Shown: positions 3,162-24,046 of the stretch, piece after piece
How the letters are laid out: the number at the start of each line of letters is the position of its first letter
How positions within the stretch are numbered: the stretch's first letter is position 1
Source: Balanoglossus misakiensis
Lineage: Eukaryota > Animalia > Hemichordata
NCBI GenBank assembly: GCA_040954595.2
Contig: CM082587.2
Coordinates: 11,227,403 to 11,291,402 of the forward strand
Direction: 5' to 3'
Length of the DNA: 64,000 bases
The notes under the pieces: generated by a model
What the model was told of the DNA's origin: nothing
Database searches by the model: none
Seen by the model: the letters and a program-made list of their open reading frames with translations, nothing else
Translations under genes and position numbers: made by a program

Positions 3162-4374
3162 TTAATTGTTCTTCGAATTCGGTGTCCTGATTATATATGA
3201 CATGTTGATTGTATGTTAAAAGTTTCGACCACTCCAAAAATGCAGAGATATTGACGGAATTCAAGAAAAAATAGTCATTTTGGCCATATTTTGACAAAAA
3301 TGGTAAATTTTTAAAAAATCATAAAAAATTAACTCTTTTCTTCATTTTCGGAAATATAATGGAGCATGAAGTGTCGTTCTCTTGTAAAAAGTGCTGCAAA
3401 TTCCAGAAAAGGCGGTATAATTTGAATCACCCAAGACAAAATTACCATTTTCGACTTTTTTTTCGAAAAATTGTCTTTTTTACAAAATAAATAAGAATAA
3501 ATTCTTTTCTTAGCTTCAAACGGGTAGAGATACTTTCCACACGGGTTTTCTAACATTGAATTCCGGTTCATCAACTCAGATTTCCTACAGCATAAGTCGG
3601 CGAAAACCCTGACACTCTAGAGCAGAAACAGTTGCACACAGGTAACGTTGAACAAGTCGATTTTTCTACGGCCTGGCTCGGCTAAATCTCCGTCACAATA
3701 TGACAGACACTGGCGTACGTTAGCAACGGTGATCAAGTCAGATTTTCTACGGCATGGCTTGGATAAAGCCCCGGCACTCTAGAGCAGAAACACGCGTACG
3801 GAGACCACGTTGATCAAGTCTGATCTCCTACGGCTTGGCTCGACTAAAACCCCGGCACACTATGACAGACAATAGCGTTCGGTAGCAACGTTGATCAAGT
3901 CAGATTTCCTACGGCATGGCTTGGCTAAAGCCCTGGCACTCTAGAGCAGAAACATGCGTACAGAGACCACGTTGATCCACTCACATTTCCTTCGGCCTGG
4001 CACGGCTGATGCCCCGGCACTATATATAGGACACAGACTGGCGTAAGTTAACAACGGTAATCACGTCGGGTTTCCTACGGCCTGGCTCAGCTGAAGCCCC
4101 GGCACTCTAGAGCAGAAACAGGCGTACATTGACCACGTTGATCAAGTCAGATTTCCTACGGCGTGACTCCGCTGGTGCACCGGCTCTATATGACACAGAC
4201 TGGCGTAAGTTATCAACGGTGATTACGTCGGATTTCCTACGGCCTGGTTTAGCTGAAGCCCCGGCACTTTAGAGCGGAAACACGCGTACATTGACCACGT
4301 TGATCAAGTCAGATCTCCTACGGCCTGGCTCGACTAAAACCCTGGCACACCATGACAGACACTAGCGTTCGTTA

Positions 4375-5335
4375 CAACACTACATGTGACCAGACTCTTT
4401 GTTCTCTTGGGACATTATCTATGATAATGCACTGGTACCAGTGCAATATCTGGATATTGCACTGCACCTGGCATAATAAGATTCACTACAACAAACAAGA
4501 TAGCTTTGACAGGAGGTGCTGCCTCCGGCGGGAAGAACTGCTTCCAGGTGCACACACTTGGTTCGTCCATCTTTCTTTGTCGTGATCTCTGCGCTGCAGG
4601 GCTCAACCTTTGGTTGGGGGTTCGTTTCTACCTCACACACGGATTCACCTGAAAGCTTGATTTTTTTCGACGTACCAAAACTTCCCTGAAGTGCCTACGC
4701 TGACGTACAATCGAACATTCCTGATCAATATAAAACTACAAATTTACAAGTTCCGAGGAAAATGACAAAAAAATGGTACTAACAGACTGAGGATGTGCGC
4801 AATGGCGGCTGCAGGCCAGGAGAAAGGCACCCTTGATTTTCTGCAGGACACTTTCCATGACCGATGGTTTATGTACATTCTCTTCAATGAAGCTACCAAA
4901 ATCTTGGAAAATCCAGTCCATATCGTAAAAGCTACGCCCTTCGCTTTCGCTTGGGTGTCGGAACGTGCTCCATGGGTAATGAAAAGCTCGTGCTCGTCGC
5001 TACTTTCGGCCATGGTGTTTGTCTGTCGAAGGTTGAGTTCCGAATGATGATGGAAACGTGGCACCTCAATGACCACGTGACAAATGCCCTGGTTGACAAG
5101 TATCCAATCGAAATCGAAATCATACACCAGGTGTATTTTGCGACGCTTGTGATTGGTTGATGTGGTTGAGAAGTTGTTTAGCATATATCAAGAACACAGA
5201 TGTTGCGACGTATTGTAAGCCGGATAATGTACTCGTGTCGTGCAATCGTTCAGATATTGAACGACACTCGGGCCTGCGGCCCTCGTGTCGTTCAATATCT
5301 GAACGATTGCACTCCACTCGTACATTATCCTTTAC
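4375..5335 (-). mobile_element. Non-autonomous Crypton-like element (~960 bp) with a long terminal hairpin
   Basis: It interrupts the satellite sequence gcgttcgtta|gcaacgg with tta repeated at both junctions (alternatively a ttac terminal direct repeat). A ~110-bp hairpin at 5222-5330 has the same design as the ends of the Crypton at 18820-21181. There is a degenerate acidic minus-strand ORF start (MAESSDEHELFIT) and no YR domain. Confidence 0.55.
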
Positions 5336-5872: not shown

Positions 5873-6508
5873 AGTTCAGTGAGTTCAGTAGTGACAATGT
5901 TCCGGGAAATGGGTCGCAGAATATATCAGTCGTTCCAGTTTCATTGAGAAGATGGTTGATCCGTGGCCGCACAGGATGTCTCGTATCACACTTGGTGGAA
6001 AACTCCGTCACCGTGGTAGTTTCGCCATACAGGCCTGGCAGTCAGATTCTGGTAGGATTACACACACAGTGCCTCAGTGCTACCGCTGGCTGTCATGTCA
6101 GTCTCCCCCTCAAGAATGGGCACGCAGCCTTTTATACCACCTTCCAGGTGCATTGCTGTACATATTTTCTACAATAATTTATTCAGAATGATTGTCCACT
6201 GTTCTCCACTGTCTATTGTTTTCGTTTCTCCCCGAATTATCACCTCCGAATTATTCATGCAAACCAAATCAGTGCAGAGATTATGTAATCCACGGCTGGT
6301 GAATTGTCCATGCGCAGTTATTCACACCGGTGGTGTGTCATAGCAGAGTTCATTTTGTCAAAGCCGTTCGATGCTAATATGTGTAACTGACTGTCTAACC
6401 ACCTCAGACAAGTAGACGTGCAGCAAATCCTAACTAACCTTTAACCACCACACAAAAACAACACTGGACACACAAGACAACACACAACACTATAGACACT
6501 TTGTGACA
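5873..6508 (-). repeat. 3' LTR of the Gmr1-like Gypsy, with ~350 bp missing at its outer end
   Basis: Near-identical to ~13843-14479. It joins the satellite abruptly, with no TG..CA outer end or TSD. Confidence 0.9.
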
Positions 6509-6639
6509 CTACTCCCCTTTCAAAGACGGAACTAGTTTCGTCTTAAAACTGAAAAGTTTCTATAGTTACAGCTATATGGGGAAGCTGAAATACTATTTCC
6601 TTTTGCTCACCTTAGGTATTCATTGAAATATAACGGCTT

Positions 6640-7222
6640 TACCCTGTGCTTCGGCTCAAGTAGTCAGCTTCAACATTGTCTGTACCTTTGATAGCAACGA
6701 TCCTGTAGCGAAAGGACTGCAATTACAGAGCCCAACGCATCAACCGACTATTTGATACTTTGGCACGGCTTAAGTAGATAAGTGGCTGGTGGTCAGTCTC
6801 AATCACAAACTCTTTCCCATAAAGGTACTGTTGGAATTTACAAATACCCCAGATAATTGCCAAACATTCTTTTTCAATCACTGAATATGCTGTCTCCCTT
6901 TTAAGCAATTTTCTACTTGCATAAATTATTGGGAATTTGTTGCTCTCATGTTCTTGCAAGACGACTGCCCCCAGTCCATTATCTGATGCATCAGCCCTTA
7001 AAATGAAAGGCTTTGAAAAATCTGGCAGCCTTAGAACCGGATAGTTACTCAGGGCCCTTTTCAATTCAGTAAAGGCCTTCTCCTGTGGCATACCCCAGTG
7101 AACCACCTTTGGTTGTCCCTTTCTAGTGAGGTCACTGAGTGGCGCTGCTATAGATGCAAAGTTTGGTATGAATTTTCTATAGTAGCTGGCCATTCCCAGA
7201 AACGAACGAACTTGCTTTACTG
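6640..7222 (-). pseudogene. pol: Gypsy pol C-terminal part (RT thumb/connection + RNase H)
   Basis: KQVRSFLGMASYYRKFIPNF, FILRADASDNGLGAVVLQ, YSVIEKECLAI, ETDHQPL. There is a stop after RWAL. It continues the 11747-12960 frame once the insertion is removed (KPRT|VKQV). Confidence 0.9.
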
Positions 7223-8009
7223 CACTGCAAATTCTGCAAAAACAAGCCGGTTTGTACTCAAGCCATTCGGGTTTGCTGACAAGCCACCTCGTCATACTTG
7301 CCGAAACTTCGGTATTTCCACAAGCCGCTAAATTTTCTGGTGTGTGCCAGCAAGCCAGTCAATGTTAGAAAAATGGTTTGTAAATACGCCGCTGGACAAC
7401 CTGTCTGGAATGGCTTATTATAAGCCATTGAACAAAATCTCTGGTTTGCTCGCAAACTTTAGTGATACTTATGTCTGGCTCGAATTTATACCATATTTAA
7501 CCTTGGCTGCATTTTAAGCCGTTGGAGTTAGTGGTCGCTTTTCAAACCATAAAAAGATGTAAGTATGGTTTGAAAACACGCCATGGAAAACTTTGCCGGG
7601 ATGTGGTTCATATACACGCCACGCTGGGCACAATGTCTTGCGAAATACCCTGATTTGGCGCGCGAATGCAGGGTCAAAGGTTATTTATTACACAACTACA
7701 ACGTTTTGACGCGAGAGAAGACGGTCCACGGGTGAGGAAGCAGATCGAATCACGTCGTTCCCTTTATAAAATTCGTTCAGCGATTTACAATGCACTCAAC
7801 CTGTTCCTAAGGTAGAACCGAAATACCATATGCGTGGATAATTACTTTGGCACCGAGCATCGTTATGGAAGGATGACATCTAATGACTTAGCAGTTGACC
7901 GCCAGCATCTACGAGACCGTAACATAGAACAATGCCGGTTGGGGTAAGTCCTGCTTCCATTCCATTTTGTGACAGTAACTACATTTTTGCGAGCAGTGAA
8001 GATAATACA

Positions 8010-15996: not shown

Positions 15997-18537
15997 AATT
16001 GTTTTTCTAAAAATGACATTTTCAAGGAAAATTTGGTAAAACGCAATTTTGTCTGCAGTGAGCCAAATTAGACTGTCTTTTGTGCAATTTGTATCGATAT
16101 ATACATACGAAGAGCATTCTATACTCCATCAGATATCCGAAAATGTAGAAAACAGTTATTTTTCGTAATTTTCAAAAATTTACCATTTTTGACCAAAATG
16201 TGGCTAAAATGGTTATTTTCGTCTTGAATGCCGCCAGTGTCACTGCTTTTAAGAGTCATAAAAACTTTTAACATACAAGCAATTGTTTATATGTGATCAG
16301 GTCACCGAATTAAAAAAATAAAGAATGTTTTGCCTAAAAATGACATATTTGGTGCAAAAACGAATAAAACGCAATTTTGTATTAAATCAGCTCATTCAGA
16401 GTGCATTTTTTATAATCAGCACCATTTTTACATATAATGGAAATTTCATACATCATCAGATATCCAAATATGAAAAAATGATTTAGATTTTAGGTGATTG
16501 TCCAAAATTAGCTGATATCTAATAAATGTAGTATTGAACCGTTCTGTTTCCACCCCCCCCCCCTACATTATATGTGGTACGCCGATGTCAGCTTACCCGG
16601 CAGTACTGAAGGCCGTGCCCCCAACTAACGTCGGTGTTTGAAACGCCCTGGTTAAATTCGGGCTTTCTCTATAAATTGACAGGCAATAATGCAGTAATAC
16701 CCGAACAAATGTCGAGTGATGACCCGCTGTGACTTTCCCTCTTCGGTTTGCCCGACTTAGCCAACGTCTTTGTACTAGAGTGTCGGGTCTTTTGCAGAGC
16801 CAGGCCGAAGGAAATCCGACTTGATCACCGTTGCTAACGAACGCTAGTGTCTGTCATGGTGTGCCGGGGTTTTAGTCGAGCCAAGCCGTAGGAGATCTGA
16901 CTTGATAATCGTGGTCAATGTACGCGTGTTTCCGCTCTAAAGTGCCGGGGCTTCAGCTAAACCAGGCCGTAGGAAATCCGACGTAATCATCGTTGATAAC
17001 TTAGGCAAGTCTGTGTCATATAGAGCCGGTGCACCAGCCGAGTCACGCCGTAGGAAATCTGACTTGATCAACGTTGATAACGAACGCTAGTGTCTGTCAT
17101 AGTGTGCCGGGGTTTTAGTCGAGCCAAGCAGTAGGAGATCAGACTTGATCAACGTGGTCACTGTACGCGTGTTTCTGCTCTAGAGTGCCGGGGCTTTATC
17201 CAAGCCATGCCGTAGAAAATCTGACTTGATCACCGTTGCTAACGTACGCTAGTGTCTGTCATATTGTGACGGAGATTTAGCCGAGCCAGGCCGTAGAAAA
17301 ATCGACTTGTTCAACGTTACCAGTGTGCAACTGTTTCTGCTGTAGAATGTCAGGGTTTTAGCCGACTTATGCTGTAGGAAATCTGAGTTGATGAACGGGA
17401 ATTCAATGTTAGAAAACCCGTGTGGAAAGTATCTCTACCCGTTTGAAACTAAGAAAAGAATTTATTCTTATTTATTTTGTAAAAAAGACAATTTTTCGAA
17501 AAAAAGTCGAAAATGGTAATTTTGTCTTGGGTGATTCAAATTATACCGCCTTTTCTGGAATTTGCAGCACTTTTTACAAGAGAACGACACTGCATGCTCC
17601 ATAATATTTCCGAAAATGAAGAAAAGAGTTAATTTTTTATGATTTTTTTTTTAAATTTACCATTTTTTGTCAAAATATGGCCAAAATGGCTATTGTTTCT
17701 TGAATTCCGTCAATATCTCTGCATTTTTGGAGTGGTCGAAAGTTTTAACATACAATCAACATGTCATATATGATCAGGGCACCCAATTCGAAGAACAAAG
17801 GTTTTTTTAGCCAACGTCTTTGTACTAGAGTGTCGGGTCTTTTGCAGAGCCCGGCCGAATGAAATCCGACTTGATCACCGTTGCTAACGAACGCTAGTGT
17901 CTGTCATGGTGTGCCGAGGTTTTAGTCGAGCCAAGCCGTAGGAGATCTGACTTGATAATCGTGGTCAATGTACGCGTGTTTCCGCTCTAAAGTGCCGGGG
18001 CTTCAGCTAAACCAGGCCGTAGGAAATCCGACGTAATCACCGTTGATAACTTACGCCAGTCTGTGTCCTATATATAGTGCCGGGGCATCAGCCGTGCCAG
18101 GCCGAAGGACATGTGAGTAGATCAACGTGGTCTCTGTACGCGTGTTTCTGCTCTAGAGTGCCAGGGCTTTAGCCAAGCCATGCCGTAGGAAATCTGACTT
18201 GATCAACGTTGCTAACGAACGCTAGTGACTGTCGTAGTGTGCCGGGGTTTTAGTCGAGCCAAGCCGTAGGAGATCAGACTTGATGAACGTGGTCTCTGTA
18301 CGCGTGTTTCTGCTCTAGAGTGCCGGGGCTTTAGCCAAGCCATGCCGTAGGAAATCTGACTTGATCAACGTTGCTAACGAACGCTAGTGACTGTCATAGT
18401 GTGCCGGGGTTTTAGTCGAGTCACGCCGTAGGAAATCTGACTTGATCAACGTGGTCAATGTTCGCCTGTTTCTACTCTAGAGTGCCGGGGCTTCAGCTGA
18501 GCCAGGCCGTAGGAAACCCGACGTGATTACCGTTGTT
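15997..18537 (+). repeat. Macrosatellite, forward orientation
   Basis: Same orientation as 54073-64000. It includes a deletion junction at ~17808. Confidence 0.92.
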
Positions 18538-18819
18538 GTTCTGTACTGTTGCTGTTAATAAAATGTTATGACAATCCCTCATTGTACTACATGTAATACT
18601 TAACGGTAAGTACAATATCATGCACATCCCTTGCTTTTTAGTAAAATGACATGCCTTCCCCTAGTTCTGTACTATAACTGTTAGTCAAATGTCATGTCCA
18701 ACACTCACTTTGTACTATAAGTTACCAATAATAAAAATGTCATGCCCTCCCTGCTTCTCGATAGTTGTTAATAAAATGTTACTCCCACCCCAAGGGTAGT
18801 AATGGTACTTGAACTGTTA

Positions 18820-21181
18820 ATACACAACTCGTCACAGATAGTACAATAGATTTAGCGGTTGAAATTTTAGAGAGCAACCTCATTTTGAGGTGATATTTTT
18901 GGGGTGGGGTGATATCAACCTATTGAACTCTCGGCATGATAGCAGAAATTTCACTCGACTTCGTCTCGTGATATTTCAGCCATCATGCCTCGAAAATGAA
19001 TATTTGGCGGTACGGTCGTGATATTGACTCTCGGCTACGCCTCGAGACAATATCACGACCTATCTCCAAATAAAAATGCAGACAAAACTACAAAATGTAA
19101 CATTTAAACATCTTAATATTTATTCAATTACATTCAATTTCTATTTTTGAATATGGAATATACAGTTGTTGTAAACCACATTGGACTTGACGTTGCTGGA
19201 GATTTCATGTTGTTTGACGTCGGTATTATCACTTTTAATTGGGGTTTCGCGATGGCTTTTGGTTGCAGCTGGACCATTTAAGATGTCAATCACCCTCTTC
19301 TGTTGTTCCTGACTCGAACGCTTGTAATTACGAACACCTTGAAATGTAAACAATAAATCAGTAAATCAAGAGATCATAAAGTGCATTTACTTTTTAAAAC
19401 TGTTTTGAAAAAAGGAGATACATGTACTCGCCTTCTACAGAACGATGTCCTGTGCGTTCCATAATTTACTGTTCATCAACTCCGTTTTGGAAAAGGCTCG
19501 TAGCAGCTGTAGCTCTCAGGCCGTGATTGGTAAAGTGACCATTTATCCCAGCTGCTCTAAATAGTTCAGGTACCACAGGTTGCAGGGAGTTGTGGCCCAT
19601 AGCCTGTTTGCTGAACCACACCTTCGACGATTCTTCGTATTTTCGCAAGGGTTGCAAGTAAAACGTACTCTTGTTCGCATTTGGTGGACACAGCGAAACG
19701 TATTTTTTATATAGCCGAACATGACATCTCGCTGGATTATCAGTATTTGCATAATGTTTCACTTCCTTTCGACGAACTTTCATGTGTTTTAGTCCACCTT
19801 GGTTGCTTTTTGACACGTCTTCCACGTATAGCAGATACGGAGTGTCCCCATCAGGTTCACGCAAAGTAATCTGAGGTGGGTCAAAGCGAAGCGCACGGTG
19901 TTCCTGTCCACTTCTGAGGGCAAAATGTTTCCCATTCAAGAATACCATTGTGCGGACAAGAACCCTGGGGGAATGGTCGCCTGGTAGTTTCATTTTCCAC
20001 AGTAAATCGATTTGCTCAGTAGATATTGCCTCAGCCTGTTTCTTGTTTGTTCCGATACCAATGCTAGACAGTCTCTTCATCTCTGCATCAAGAACCTGAC
20101 GGAAACCAACAAATTCTTGGTCGGCAAGAAAGTTTGTCCGGGTTTGTCTTTCGAAACATACATAACTTTGCAAGCCCATTATCAATGAGAGTACAGTTTT
20201 TGGTGGGTAGGGGTGTCCGTCGACTTTCCTCGCCTCCAGTACAAACTTGCTAAGCCAATACTGCAAATCGTCTGTGGACATCGTTTCTATACTACGAGTT
20301 ATCTTCACTTTCTCATCAGTTGACGACTCGACGCGAGTATTATTTCGGGCCATGGCCCATTCGTTGAAAGTCCGTAGCGCCCACATATTACGGCGTTGAG
20401 TATTCTTGGGAATGGAATTTTTTGCAACCCCCTGTACGCAGGAATCCGACACTGGGTCAGCAAACCGCCCTCTGGGAATGTCCTTTAACGAAATAAAAAA
20501 TGATTCAATATACATTCTTACTTGCATGTTCAACGACAACGTACACGATAAAAAGGTGAAAATGGCGGAATGAATAAAAGAATTCGTGACTCACCGAAGG
20601 AATGCTCCTGACTGCTATATCGATATTTTCGAAGCCAAGCTCGTTCAAATATTCTGCTGCTTGTGAGGCTTCAATTAACTCTTCATCAGAGATATCAGAA
20701 AAATCGGGATACACCTCATGCGCCATGCTGCCACTATGACACGTTCAGGTAGAAAGAAATTGTGCCTCGTGGCCGTGCATTTATATTATAAGATATGCCA
20801 TTGTGCATGTGTAAAACATGCACAGCCAATACAATTGGAAGAAACATTGCATGTGAGCTTATTACTAAACAATAATTGGTTGAACTAGGCAATATATGCA
20901 TCCCAGGTGCAAAACGCTGAATAATTAAATACTTTCCGTAAGTAGGACCATACCATTTTGAAAGTTAGGCTGATATCAACCGCTTAGGGTCCATACAAAA
21001 GATTTTTAAACACTGTATTGTCGGTTGAGGGGTGTTTACTTGTAGAGGGGCCTGCACCTTTCACTCGTTGTGTATGTTAAATATCGTATGACTACTTCGG
21101 CGTCATCCATAATATCAACCTCGGACTTCGTCCTCGGTTGATATTATGGATGTCGCCTCGTTAGTCATACGATATATATAC
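18820..21181 (-). mobile_element. Crypton (tyrosine-recombinase DNA transposon), 2362 bp
   Basis: The boundaries come from the empty site gaactgtta|gtaaaata at ~22143-22159. There is no TSD, and atac is present at both element ends. Subterminal hairpins lie at 18929-18993, 19002-19071 and 21081-21175. A DUF3504-type YR gene with introns is inside. Confidence 0.88.
19141..20726 (-). pseudogene. Crypton tyrosine recombinase (DUF3504 / ZMYM-KCTD1-like), 3 exons: 20726-20595, 20482-19432, 19337-19141; ~459 aa; one premature stop at 19466-19468
   Basis: Catalytic motifs ALRSGQEH, NHGLRAT, TGHRS and RNYKR; also EARKVDGHPYPP and C-terminal YNNCIF. Intron 1 is GT-AG phase 0 and intron 2 is GC-AG phase 1; both join in frame. 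Confidence 0.88.
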
Positions 21182-24046
21182 GTAAAATATCATGCCCATG
21201 TTCCTAGTTATGAACTGAAACGTTTAGGCTAATCAACTGTAATGGTCATGTACTTGGTTTAGTAAAATGTCTGCCAATGTCTTGCGTAGTTCTACAACTC
21301 ATAATAAAATGCCATGCCCTCCCCTAGTTCCGTACTGTAGGGGTCAATAAAACGCATTATCTGGCCACCCTAGCTCTTAAGTTGATCGTATGCCATGCCG
21401 AAACCTAGTTCTGTATTGTGACTTAGAGCTTAGATGGTCCTATAAAGCTTATTAAACTTGTGCACACTTCAAATAGGCCGAAAATGTCATGTGTACCGAC
21501 TGATAATAAACTGTCATTTCATACCAGCTATGCACTCAAAAAAATGACGTGGCATTAACACTAGAGGACGTGTACTGATCTGAGTGAATCAGATCCCGTG
21601 AGGAGTACGGTGCCCAGAGTACACGTGTACTAGTAGAGAAATGCCAAGTGTTGCTACATCTTCGCGCTTCGCCCGCCAAGGTCGCCATGCCCATCCCCTT
21701 GCTGTGTTAATTGATAATAAAATGTCGTACCCTGCCCTTGTTCTGTACTGTTGCTGTTAATAAAATGTTATGACAATCCCTCATTGTACTACATGTAATA
21801 CTTAAGTGTAAGTACAATATCATGCACATCCCTTGCTTTTTAGTAAAATGACATGCCTTCCCCTTGTTCTGTACTTTTGCTGTTAATAAAATGTTATGAC
21901 AATCCCTCATTGTACTACATGTAATACTTAACGGTAGGTACAATATCATGCACATCCCTTGCTTTTTAGTAAAATGCCATGCCTTCCCCTAGTTCTGTAC
22001 TATAACTGTTAGTCAAATGTCATGTGCAACACTCACTTTGTACTATAAGTTACCAATAATAAAAATGTCATGCCCTCCCTGCTTCTCTATAGTTGTTAAT
22101 AAACTGTTACTCCCACCCCAAGGGTTGTTTGTACTGGTACTTGAACTGTTAGTAAAATACCATGCCCATGTTCCTAGTTATGAACTGAAACGTTTAGGCT
22201 AATCAACTGTAATGCTCATGTACTCGGTTTAGTTAAATGTCTGCCAATGTCTTGCGTAGTTCTACAACTGATAATAAAATGCCATGCCCTCCCCTAGTTC
22301 CGTACTGTAGGGGTCAATAAAACGCATTATCTGGCCACCCCTAGCTCTTAAGTTGATCGTATGCCATGCCGAAACCTAGTTCTGTATTGTGACTTAGAGC
22401 TTAGATGGTCCTATAAAGCTTATAAAACTTGTGCACACTCCAAATTGGCCGAAAATGTCATGTGTACCGACTGATAATAAACTGTCATTTCATCCCAGCT
22501 ATGCACTCAAAAAATGACGTGGCATTAAACACTAGAAGACGTGTACTGATCTGAGTGAATCAGATCCCGTGAGGAGTACGGTGCCCAGAGTACACGTGTA
22601 CTAGTAGAGAAATGCCAGGTGTTGCTACATCTTCGCGCTTCGCCAGCCATTGCTCTCCGGAAAATAGGAGACTGCATGTAGTTGAGCGAGCACGTGCGAA
22701 CGGACGATGGTGTTGCTACCGTCGACTAGGCGAATGAAGACACAGCGCTAATACTAGTGTCTGTCACGACTATCACACCAAAACTGTCCTTTACTGTAAA
22801 TATAAAAAAGCTATTCAAGTCGGAGGAGTCTTTCCACTAGTCTTCGATATCGAGGAGCCATTTGTATCTGCATAAATTTGCATTTCCAGTCTCGTTCGCG
22901 GATGACTTGTTTGTATTTGTCAAAGGCGAGTTAGGCACGTGCTTAGTTTTTTGGGTAATCGTAATCGTCCATGGTAACTTATTTGTCTATTACATATTTT
23001 AATGTCATCTTTCTTATCAAGCCTTGATGTAAATACATGTTATTTTCGTAAACACCACGGGTTCACAGAGTTTTGCTTCCAGGATGTCTGCAGTTGAATA
23101 CAGCACACACATCTGCTTCTTGCCCCAATGTCAGAGAGTGTAGCAATACATAATGTATGGTAATTACGTATACGTCCCTTTCTCAGATCAAAATCATTTA
23201 AGTTAACAAAATAATGGTAAGTACATTAAAAATTAAATGGGGGACGAGATAAGGGTGAAGCAATAGTATTTCAAATAAAATAAAATCTAAAATACATGTG
23301 AAATCCTGGTTTGTCCTCATTAAACTAATTCTCGTGATCGTTCTCTCTATTGAACCCAACAGTAAATAAAAATACAAAAAGGTAAGCCAGTCCGGCCAGT
23401 GCTAACTTGGTCTGACTGGTACGCTGGAAAGGGAAATCGTCAGACAGCACTATTTTCAGGACAAGATGTCAATTATGTTTGTGCTACCGGTGGATGCAAT
23501 GGTCCTCTCATTGTATTATAGAGCTAACTATATTTACGAAATTCGCATAGCAATGCTATGTTTCGGCTTTACAACCTGAAGCCAGAGTTTGAAGCAATGA
23601 GGAAGGCTGTTGTTATGTTGACCTTCCAAATTTTTGGCCAATTGAGAAAATTATTCGGCACATCAAGGGAGAATTCCCAATAATCTCTGCCGGAACAGTT
23701 GAAAAAGGACAAATCTATCGCATATGTCCCAAAATGTCCCTGGCTAATTGGGCTGTGGAGACCGGCTGCATAAATGGGTTGTCACCTCAGACGAAATCAT
23801 TTACGGTGCGAAGTGTAATTAGCGTGCGCTTGGGCCCTAAAAAATGCCAGTAATACCACAGACAAAGATAATTGGTTCCTTATCCCCACTGCGTAGTATG
23901 TTTTCGTATGTATTCAAAGCCTCATTACGCAGCGATATCTTTACGCATCTCATAAATATTTATAAGGCATGAGTATAAATAGGGCAACATAATTGGTACA
24001 CTTAGTTTGTCACTCGATAACGGAGGAGAAACAGTAACACGACAGA

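Follow-up and report, generated by a model that had tools for sequence, protein, structure and literature searches.

We characterized a CryptonA element of Balanoglossus misakiensis whose ends carry hairpins of a design polarized towards the recombinase-coding strand, and in which one short internal segment is complementary to both termini. Together with the one-sided insertion junctions of its relatives, this anatomy suggests that the CryptonA recombinase probably moves the folded coding strand as single-stranded DNA, by one strand exchange that would be resolved through replication. This proposal is drawn from sequence, and it stands apart from the double-stranded circle that a 2026 review assumes for Crypton movement, which by the same review is experimentally undemonstrated (PMC13565253). 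The window referred to below is the whole 64,000-nt stretch of DNA that was analyzed.

A CryptonA Element in a Tandem-Repeat Region

The element and its predicted gene are laid out as follows.

18820..21181, minus strand: CryptonA element, 2362 bp, with no target-site duplication, in a tandem-repeat region
20879-20830 and 20785, minus strand: CCAAT boxes and TATA, respectively, upstream of predicted exon 1
20595..20726, minus strand: predicted exon 1 of the recombinase gene, resembling the N-terminus of homologue P0004, splice sites placed by eye
19432..20482, minus strand: predicted exon 2, DUF3504 tyrosine recombinase with R, K, H-x-x-R and H motifs
19141..19337, minus strand: predicted exon 3, with the catalytic tyrosine motif; AATAAA at 19124

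In contigs of all four runs examined, 18819 is joined to 21182; the element is thereby delimited as an insertion of 2362 bp that left no target duplication. An empty-site-like copy is present at 22140 in the window (one mismatch in 24), and another copy of the element has a different flank beyond 21181. In the contigs of the four runs, read depth is higher at the ends of the element than in its middle, and a joint of 19101 to 20342 marks a derivative with an internal deletion in which both ends and the three hairpins are retained. These contigs, a kind of data that drops rare forms, showed neither a circle nor a tail-to-head joint of the element.

The main ORF matches DUF3504 (Pfam, E 7.5e-38) and QRICH1 (3.4e-16). 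Nearly all of its 114 homologues are DUF3504 proteins, and the nearest named protein is from Ptychodera (88%). The predicted model of the full-length homologue P0004 has QRICH1 as its best match and Cre as its second, with an IntI structure ranked 41st. Intron 2 of the window gene has a GC donor, as read by eye. The window copy is likely inactive, as an in-frame stop (19466-19468) separates the second R from the catalytic Y.

Tandem satellites occupy 1-1215, 17816-18560, 18536-18819 and 21182-22500, with periods of about 121 bp, 81 bp and 126 bp, and both window elements (the second is described below) are inserted in such arrays. Elsewhere, the minus strand of 6480-7250 looks by eye like the RNase H region of an LTR retrotransposon pol.

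Hairpins at the Element Ends

Three hairpins lie close to the ends of the element.

21081..21175, minus strand: 5'-terminal hairpin, cGAAg loop, GA/GA 4 bp from the loop and a second GA/GA lower in the stem
19002..19071, minus strand: 3' subterminal hairpin, cGTAg loop, GA/GA 3 bp from the loop
18929..18993, minus strand: 3' subterminal hairpin, cGAAg loop, GA/GA 3 bp from the loop and another at the stem base

The first-pass annotation had placed hairpins at these three positions and described their plus-strand loops and TC-opposite-TC interruptions, a description that our reading bears out. The plus-strand loops are TTC (18960-62), TAC (19036-38) and TTC (21127-29), each closed by C-G. Apical TC/TC interruptions occur at 18955-56/18966-67, 19031-32/19042-43 and 21121-22/21134-35, at 3, 3 and 4 bp from the loop, and two of the hairpins have a second one, at 18931-32/18990-91 and 21097-98/21158-59. 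Read on the minus, YR-coding strand, these are the cGAAg, cGTAg and cGAAg loops with GA/GA mismatches that had been reported. Only 2 bp of stem lie beyond the interruption at 18931-32/18990-91. The one at 21097-98/21158-59 falls within a 4x4 loop in the window copy, and every contig that covers position 21096 (runs X1 and X2) has a C there, restoring the flanking pair.

A mismatch-neutral scan of the window returned six capped stems, four of them with TC/TC (the three hairpins and one at 5275). In 1.28 Mb of dinucleotide-shuffled sequence (20 shuffles), 15 capped stems appeared, none of them with GA/GA or TC/TC; the window hairpins are therefore not a product of chance. Folding z-scores of the hairpins in the element were -10.2 and -7.0.

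Tandem sheared GA pairs in YGAR context are stable in DNA. High stability in DNA has also been described for GNA triloops closed by C-G (PMC3201870). A stability advantage of the coding strand could not be confirmed from computed energies, which separated the strands by small margins: with ViennaRNA DNA energies, two hairpins favored the coding strand by 3.6 and 1.3 kcal/mol, whereas the third went against it by 0.8 kcal/mol. A literature search that combined tandem sheared GA pairs with transposons found no paper. Eight copies of a GTGATAT-like motif (18889-19056, 20970 and 21112-21144) stand mostly in hairpin arms, and the motif may be a subterminal binding site.

The stem at 5275 belongs to the second element.

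4372..5335, minus strand: second element, 964 bp, inserted in the 81-bp satellite and built to the same plan of hairpin, splint and target

Its hairpin (5222-5330) has a cGCAg loop and three GA/GA, and it is accompanied by a splint and a TA-8-TA target; the window holds 31 empty-site-like units for it. No recombinase was recognized in this element. A small perfect palindrome (4423-4464) lies near its 3' end.

Hairpin Design among Relatives

An alignment of 52 homologues was used to gather relatives, comprising the best 80 of 447 metagenome matches and eight genome-bin loci. The 80 metagenome loci fall into seven multi-copy families and 22 singletons, and the contigs of the relatives are presumably animal host DNA; none was found among the viral contigs searched. 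The genome-bin loci (L081-L088) are Crypton genes whose contigs, some longer than 2 Mb, are listed under bacterial MAGs and look like animal host contamination. Hairpins were found with a gapped aligner that scores the two strands identically; an ungapped detector of caps with rigid settings had yielded mostly noise and had missed several true hairpins. For the polarity tally we used one representative per family and dropped L077 (family of L033), L084 (a duplicate of L083), L040 (which has its 5' end in common with L045), low-complexity stems and scores under 16.

On the coding strand of the 19 upstream hairpins, 29 of 46 2x2 loops were GA/GA and one was TC/TC, and YGAR context was found in 27 of the 29. 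The GA/GA count is 25/42 when the window's two elements are left out. When copies from all 88 loci were counted unmerged, caps within 1.5 kb upstream numbered 42 with GA and two with TC. GA/GA made up only 3/9 of the downstream 2x2 loops. In distant hairpins the counts were 1/8 for GA/GA and 4/8 for TC/TC. Three hairpins more than 1.5 kb from a YR gene (L060, L075 and L076) mostly have TC/TC and may belong to other elements in reverse orientation; BLAST of the L060 and L075 distant hairpins against the other loci gave no link to a known end.

A 5' hairpin of the window type was present in 15 of the 26 relatives with at least 480 nt upstream, and the 11 without it may be truncated, old or of other design. 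These 15 and the window's two elements give 17 5' hairpins, with apical loops of GAA (9), GTA (4), GCA (1), AAA (1), TTC (1) and one other; a GNA loop closed by C-G occurs in 14/17. The left arms are 46% identical to one another (median of 91 pairs). Random loop identity, mismatch identity or polarity across family members, any of which the first-pass annotation had named as telling against its reading, was thus found in none of these tallies. The GA/GNA design proved general for the 5' hairpin of relatives, but downstream hairpins of this kind were seen only in the window element and L079.

Among the 62 predicted pairs of five homologous hairpins, 25 have changed in a compensatory way and the apical GA/GA columns are invariant, evidence that is weakened by the capacity of inverted repeats to homogenize without selection. 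Template switching could likewise yield compensatory change without selection, yet it would erase mismatches rather than keep them.

Several single loci depart from the common form. In L083 and its segmental duplicate L084, the hairpin tip is inverted, with a TTC loop and TC/TC on the coding strand above a lower stem with GA/GA; since the two loci share flanks, the inverted tip counts as one event. The hairpin at L083:4820-4958 is the 5' hairpin of an element in opposite orientation and keeps the cGNAg and GA/GA rule on its own strand. L070:11-88 is a perfect palindrome, as expected from template switching or assembly error, where the sister copy L071 has GA/GA and a GAA loop. The lower stem of L033:3586-3734 is also perfect, and related families have a mismatch there.

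The Splint and the Predicted Folded Junction

Next to the 5' hairpin lies a segment, here called the splint, that is complementary to the ends of the element.

21063..21080, minus strand: splint; 21063-21075 complements the 3' terminus (9 bp, GA/GA, 2 bp) and 21076-21080 faces the 5' spacer
18820..18832, minus strand: 3' terminus, predicted partner of the splint
21174..21181, minus strand: element nt 1-8, putative central spacer of the folded junction, unpaired in the prediction

The splint adjoins the inner side of the 5' hairpin and complements the last 13 nt of the coding strand, with a GA/GA, and 21063-21080 is the best complement of the last 12 nt anywhere in the element. In the folded coding strand, a single continuous internal segment is predicted to pair with both termini and so to hold the ends together; in the predicted junction of the window element, nt +1 and +2 also pair with the splint.

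Eight elements have ends that are known independently, through empty sites or through the divergence of flanks, and in six of them the segment that best complements the last 12 nt stands at the hairpin base; in family S4 the complement at that place is the second best, and in family S5 it is displaced from the hairpin base. The splint complements 12, 12 and 9 of the last 12 nt in L081, L086 and L083, and exact splint matches of 11 and 12 nt occur in L065 and L078. An exact-match test, which is weak where GA/GA or G-T breaks the pairing or where the 3' end is off the contig (L043, L051 and L074), was significant with an adjacent match in 6/15 elements and gave p of about 0.13 for the window's own element. 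Across families, the splint follows each family's own 3' end.

Base +1 pairs with the splint in 11/11 elements, once as G-T. Among the 11 elements counted (S5 and L081 left out), the junction strand exceeds the splint by 2 nt in ten; in the window element the excess is 1 nt. Four singletons had their starts chosen by a rule that assumes box spacing, so that only the seven boundary-defined elements test this excess independently (6/7). A 4-bp terminal direct repeat of the window element was considered as a recombination core and was rejected as a general feature, relatives being without it.

Targets and Insertion Junctions

Junctions were counted in 54 copies from five families, anchored inside the element so that the spacer was not a selection criterion. 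The counts are not independent events, given shared family ancestry and the origin of 52 of the 54 copies in one assembly. Of the 44 distinct left ends, 37 have host TA at -3/-2. Of the 41 distinct right ends, 20 have it at +8/+9 (background 0.13, p 3e-8); counted base by base, T occurs in 28 and A in 31. The host target consensus is thus a TA-(8 nt)-TA dyad, with insertion after the first base of the 8-nt spacer, and this position corresponds to the cut geometry of Cre. Spacers of 6-8 bp are given in PMC4792948.

A target duplication of at least 4 bp occurred in 0/41 relatives. The element spacer was kept at 42/44 left ends and the host sequence at 39/41 right ends. Of the two left-end exceptions, L029 is a truncated copy whose anchor is probably false, and L057 is diverged, with its right end not found; the right-end exceptions are two S4 copies resembling the AT-rich spacer, which also stands at their left. 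Two exchanges between unlike spacers would be expected to leave about half of the junctions in the reciprocal pattern, and none was seen among the 44 left and 41 right ends. Such one-sided insertions fit one strand exchange followed by replication, and they fit it alike for a single-stranded and a double-stranded donor.

Two loci hold arrays of ends. In L025:6353-6877, Crypton ends are joined tail to head twice in succession; both joints are exact and match the predicted circle junction, and they could be circle multimers or insertions into the end of another copy. In L015:5548-5754, two copies stand tail to tail, 7 nt apart, a gap close to the stagger expected between the two strands of one target site.

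Proposed Mechanism and Alternatives

The first-pass annotation had suggested that these Cryptons move through, or are recognized as, a folded single-stranded intermediate, and the predicted pairing of both termini with the splint and the one-sided insertions, neither of which it had described, support that reading. Boundaries, hairpins, splint, target consensus and one-sided junctions are read from the DNA, and from them we infer every step of the following course. Exposure of the coding strand, for example at a replication fork, would allow the 5' hairpin to form, and the cGNAg caps and GA/GA pairs would favor this strand over its complement. The splint would pair with the 3' terminus and bring it beside the 5' terminus. 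The recombinase would cut the coding strand after the TA-N triplet at both ends, upon which the element would close as a single-stranded circle and the host strand would be rejoined. In the circle, the junction would fold into a site that carries two TA boxes and a spacer of unequal strands (typically 9 nt vs. 7), and this site would exchange one strand with a double-stranded host TA-(8)-TA site. A second exchange would be blocked by the uneven spacer, leaving the junction to be resolved by replication. With excision from one strand only, copy number could rise.

It is unlikely, though worth weighing, that the fold matters at one step only, with the splint closing a displaced or copied strand into a circle that is made double-stranded before a single exchange and replicative resolution. 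The splint, the polarity and the one-sided junctions would be explained equally well, and the DIRS-1 model has the same order of steps, its ICR being required for transposition (PMC7192593). However, a duplex junction would carry a 9-bp spacer against an 8-bp host target, the conserved 2-nt shortfall of the splint would be unneeded for simple splinted closure, and the element encodes no polymerase or nickase.

Distinctly less probable again is the published model of a double-stranded circle and two exchanges (PMC3212892, PMC13565253), under which the palindromes would be protein-binding arrays or cruciforms and the mismatches would merely prevent deletion. The recurrence of the GTGATAT-like motif in window stems, the ordinary dyad geometry of the target and the Cre-like enzyme fold all suit it, but the spacer duplication or roughly half reciprocal junctions that it predicts were not seen. 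It also leaves unexplained the GA mismatches on the coding strand and an inverted junction copy that tracks a 3' end 2 kb away.

That the structures act in RNA, for instance in transcript stability or silencing, is hardly credible: the polarity agrees with the sense strand and sheared GA pairs are stable in RNA too, yet the hairpins lie upstream of the predicted TATA box (20785) or downstream of AATAAA (19124), which places them and the splint outside the predicted mRNA, no reverse transcriptase is encoded, and the junction pattern would go unexplained. Moreover, the stable cGNAg triloop has been described for DNA (PMC3201870).

Returning to the single-strand mechanism, we lean, with rather less assurance than for the mechanism itself, towards a wider view of animal CryptonA elements as eukaryotic single-strand DNA transposons. 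A Cre-like enzyme would read a self-assembled attC-like site made of both ends and the splint, sheared GA pairs and GNA caps would serve as a strand-selection code, and a single-stranded circle would be pasted into one strand of a TA-8-TA duplex. If this is true, it would be a third independent route to single-stranded DNA recombination by tyrosine recombinases, and it would hint that DIRS integrases and the domesticated ZMYM and QRICH1 domains descend from enzymes that read folded DNA.

Implications

How Cryptons move has been an open question since 2003. The anatomy described here fixes the ends exactly, predicts the cut sites, yields a target consensus and offers a substrate of oligonucleotide size, making movement directly testable, and it provides a rule by which CryptonA repeats can be found and delimited. 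A one-strand mechanism could explain how the active Cryptons of Chlamydomonas, which belong to a different Crypton group, excise cleanly and yet gain copies (10.1101/2022.05.23.493040). It also suggests an integrase that would insert single-stranded DNA at short targets without double-strand breaks.

Comparison with Known Systems

By domain and anatomy, the window element is a member of CryptonA, an assignment that rests on DUF3504 and on the accounts of the group in the cited parts of PMC3212892 and PMC13465315. As with the CryptonA elements described there, including Glomhopper (PMC13465315), it has a lone DUF3504 tyrosine recombinase with catalytic motifs, an animal host, no TIRs and non-autonomous derivatives. 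The motifs of the R-H-R-Y tetrad can be read, with a stop before Y in the window copy, and the copies are dispersed, without TIRs or target duplication. In the cited parts of Kojima and Jurka (2011; PMC3212892), no terminal repeats are reported for animal Cryptons, and the words hairpin and palindrome are absent from the main texts of PMC3212892 and PMC13465315. Terminal similarity is noted for salmon Cryptons and human Eulor5/6, in cited parts of the text that leave hairpins unmentioned (PMC5753468). The CryptonF of Chlamydomonas mediates inversions and translocations (10.1101/2022.05.23.493040). In the literature searched we found no description of the present end structure; one may exist in supplementary files, in the subscription literature or among the entries of Repbase and Dfam.

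The attC/IntI system resembles our proposal in using a folded single strand as the site and in keeping structure despite sequence drift (PMC4792948). Its strand selectivity and its single exchange followed by replication (PMC4792948) are features that we predict here. In contrast to attC, an element of the window type carries the recombinase inside the mobile unit, the site would consist of both termini and the splint, and GA/GA pairs, GNA caps and the uneven spacer are the predicted sources of asymmetry. Against the integron integrase profile TIGR02249, P0004 and P0001 score 19.8 and 21.6 bits, the cut-off being 265, and the predicted model places the enzyme fold nearer Cre than IntI.

The attP of CTX, acted on by XerC/D, is similar to our proposal in that an inverted internal copy of the site folds to a duplex, which then recombines with double-stranded target DNA. 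For CTX, the enzymes are borrowed from the host and the stem imitates a plain duplex (PMC4792948), whereas the Crypton encodes its own enzyme, and uses many TA-8-TA targets without a Rep protein.

DIRS elements share an internal segment complementary to both extremities placed side by side, and have single-stranded DNA intermediates such as we propose here (PMC7192593). The window element has such a region in a shorter and imperfect form: the splint is about 11-13 nt, near the 5' end, compared with a DIRS ICR that is 88 bp and exact (PMC7192593). The reverse transcriptase/RNase H and inverted LTRs of DIRS are absent, there being no second long ORF and no long terminal repeats.

IS200/IS605 elements likewise have strand-specific subterminal hairpins and no target duplication, with a single-stranded circle like the one proposed here. 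They use an HUH transposase and a single-stranded target, in contrast to the tyrosine recombinase of the Crypton and a dyad target that suggests duplex DNA; the main ORF gave no Pfam match at E up to 1 to the HUH endonucleases of IS200/IS605, Helitron or Replitron. The design would work like attC/IntI, the CTX attP and the DIRS ICR, yet the element belongs to none of these systems.
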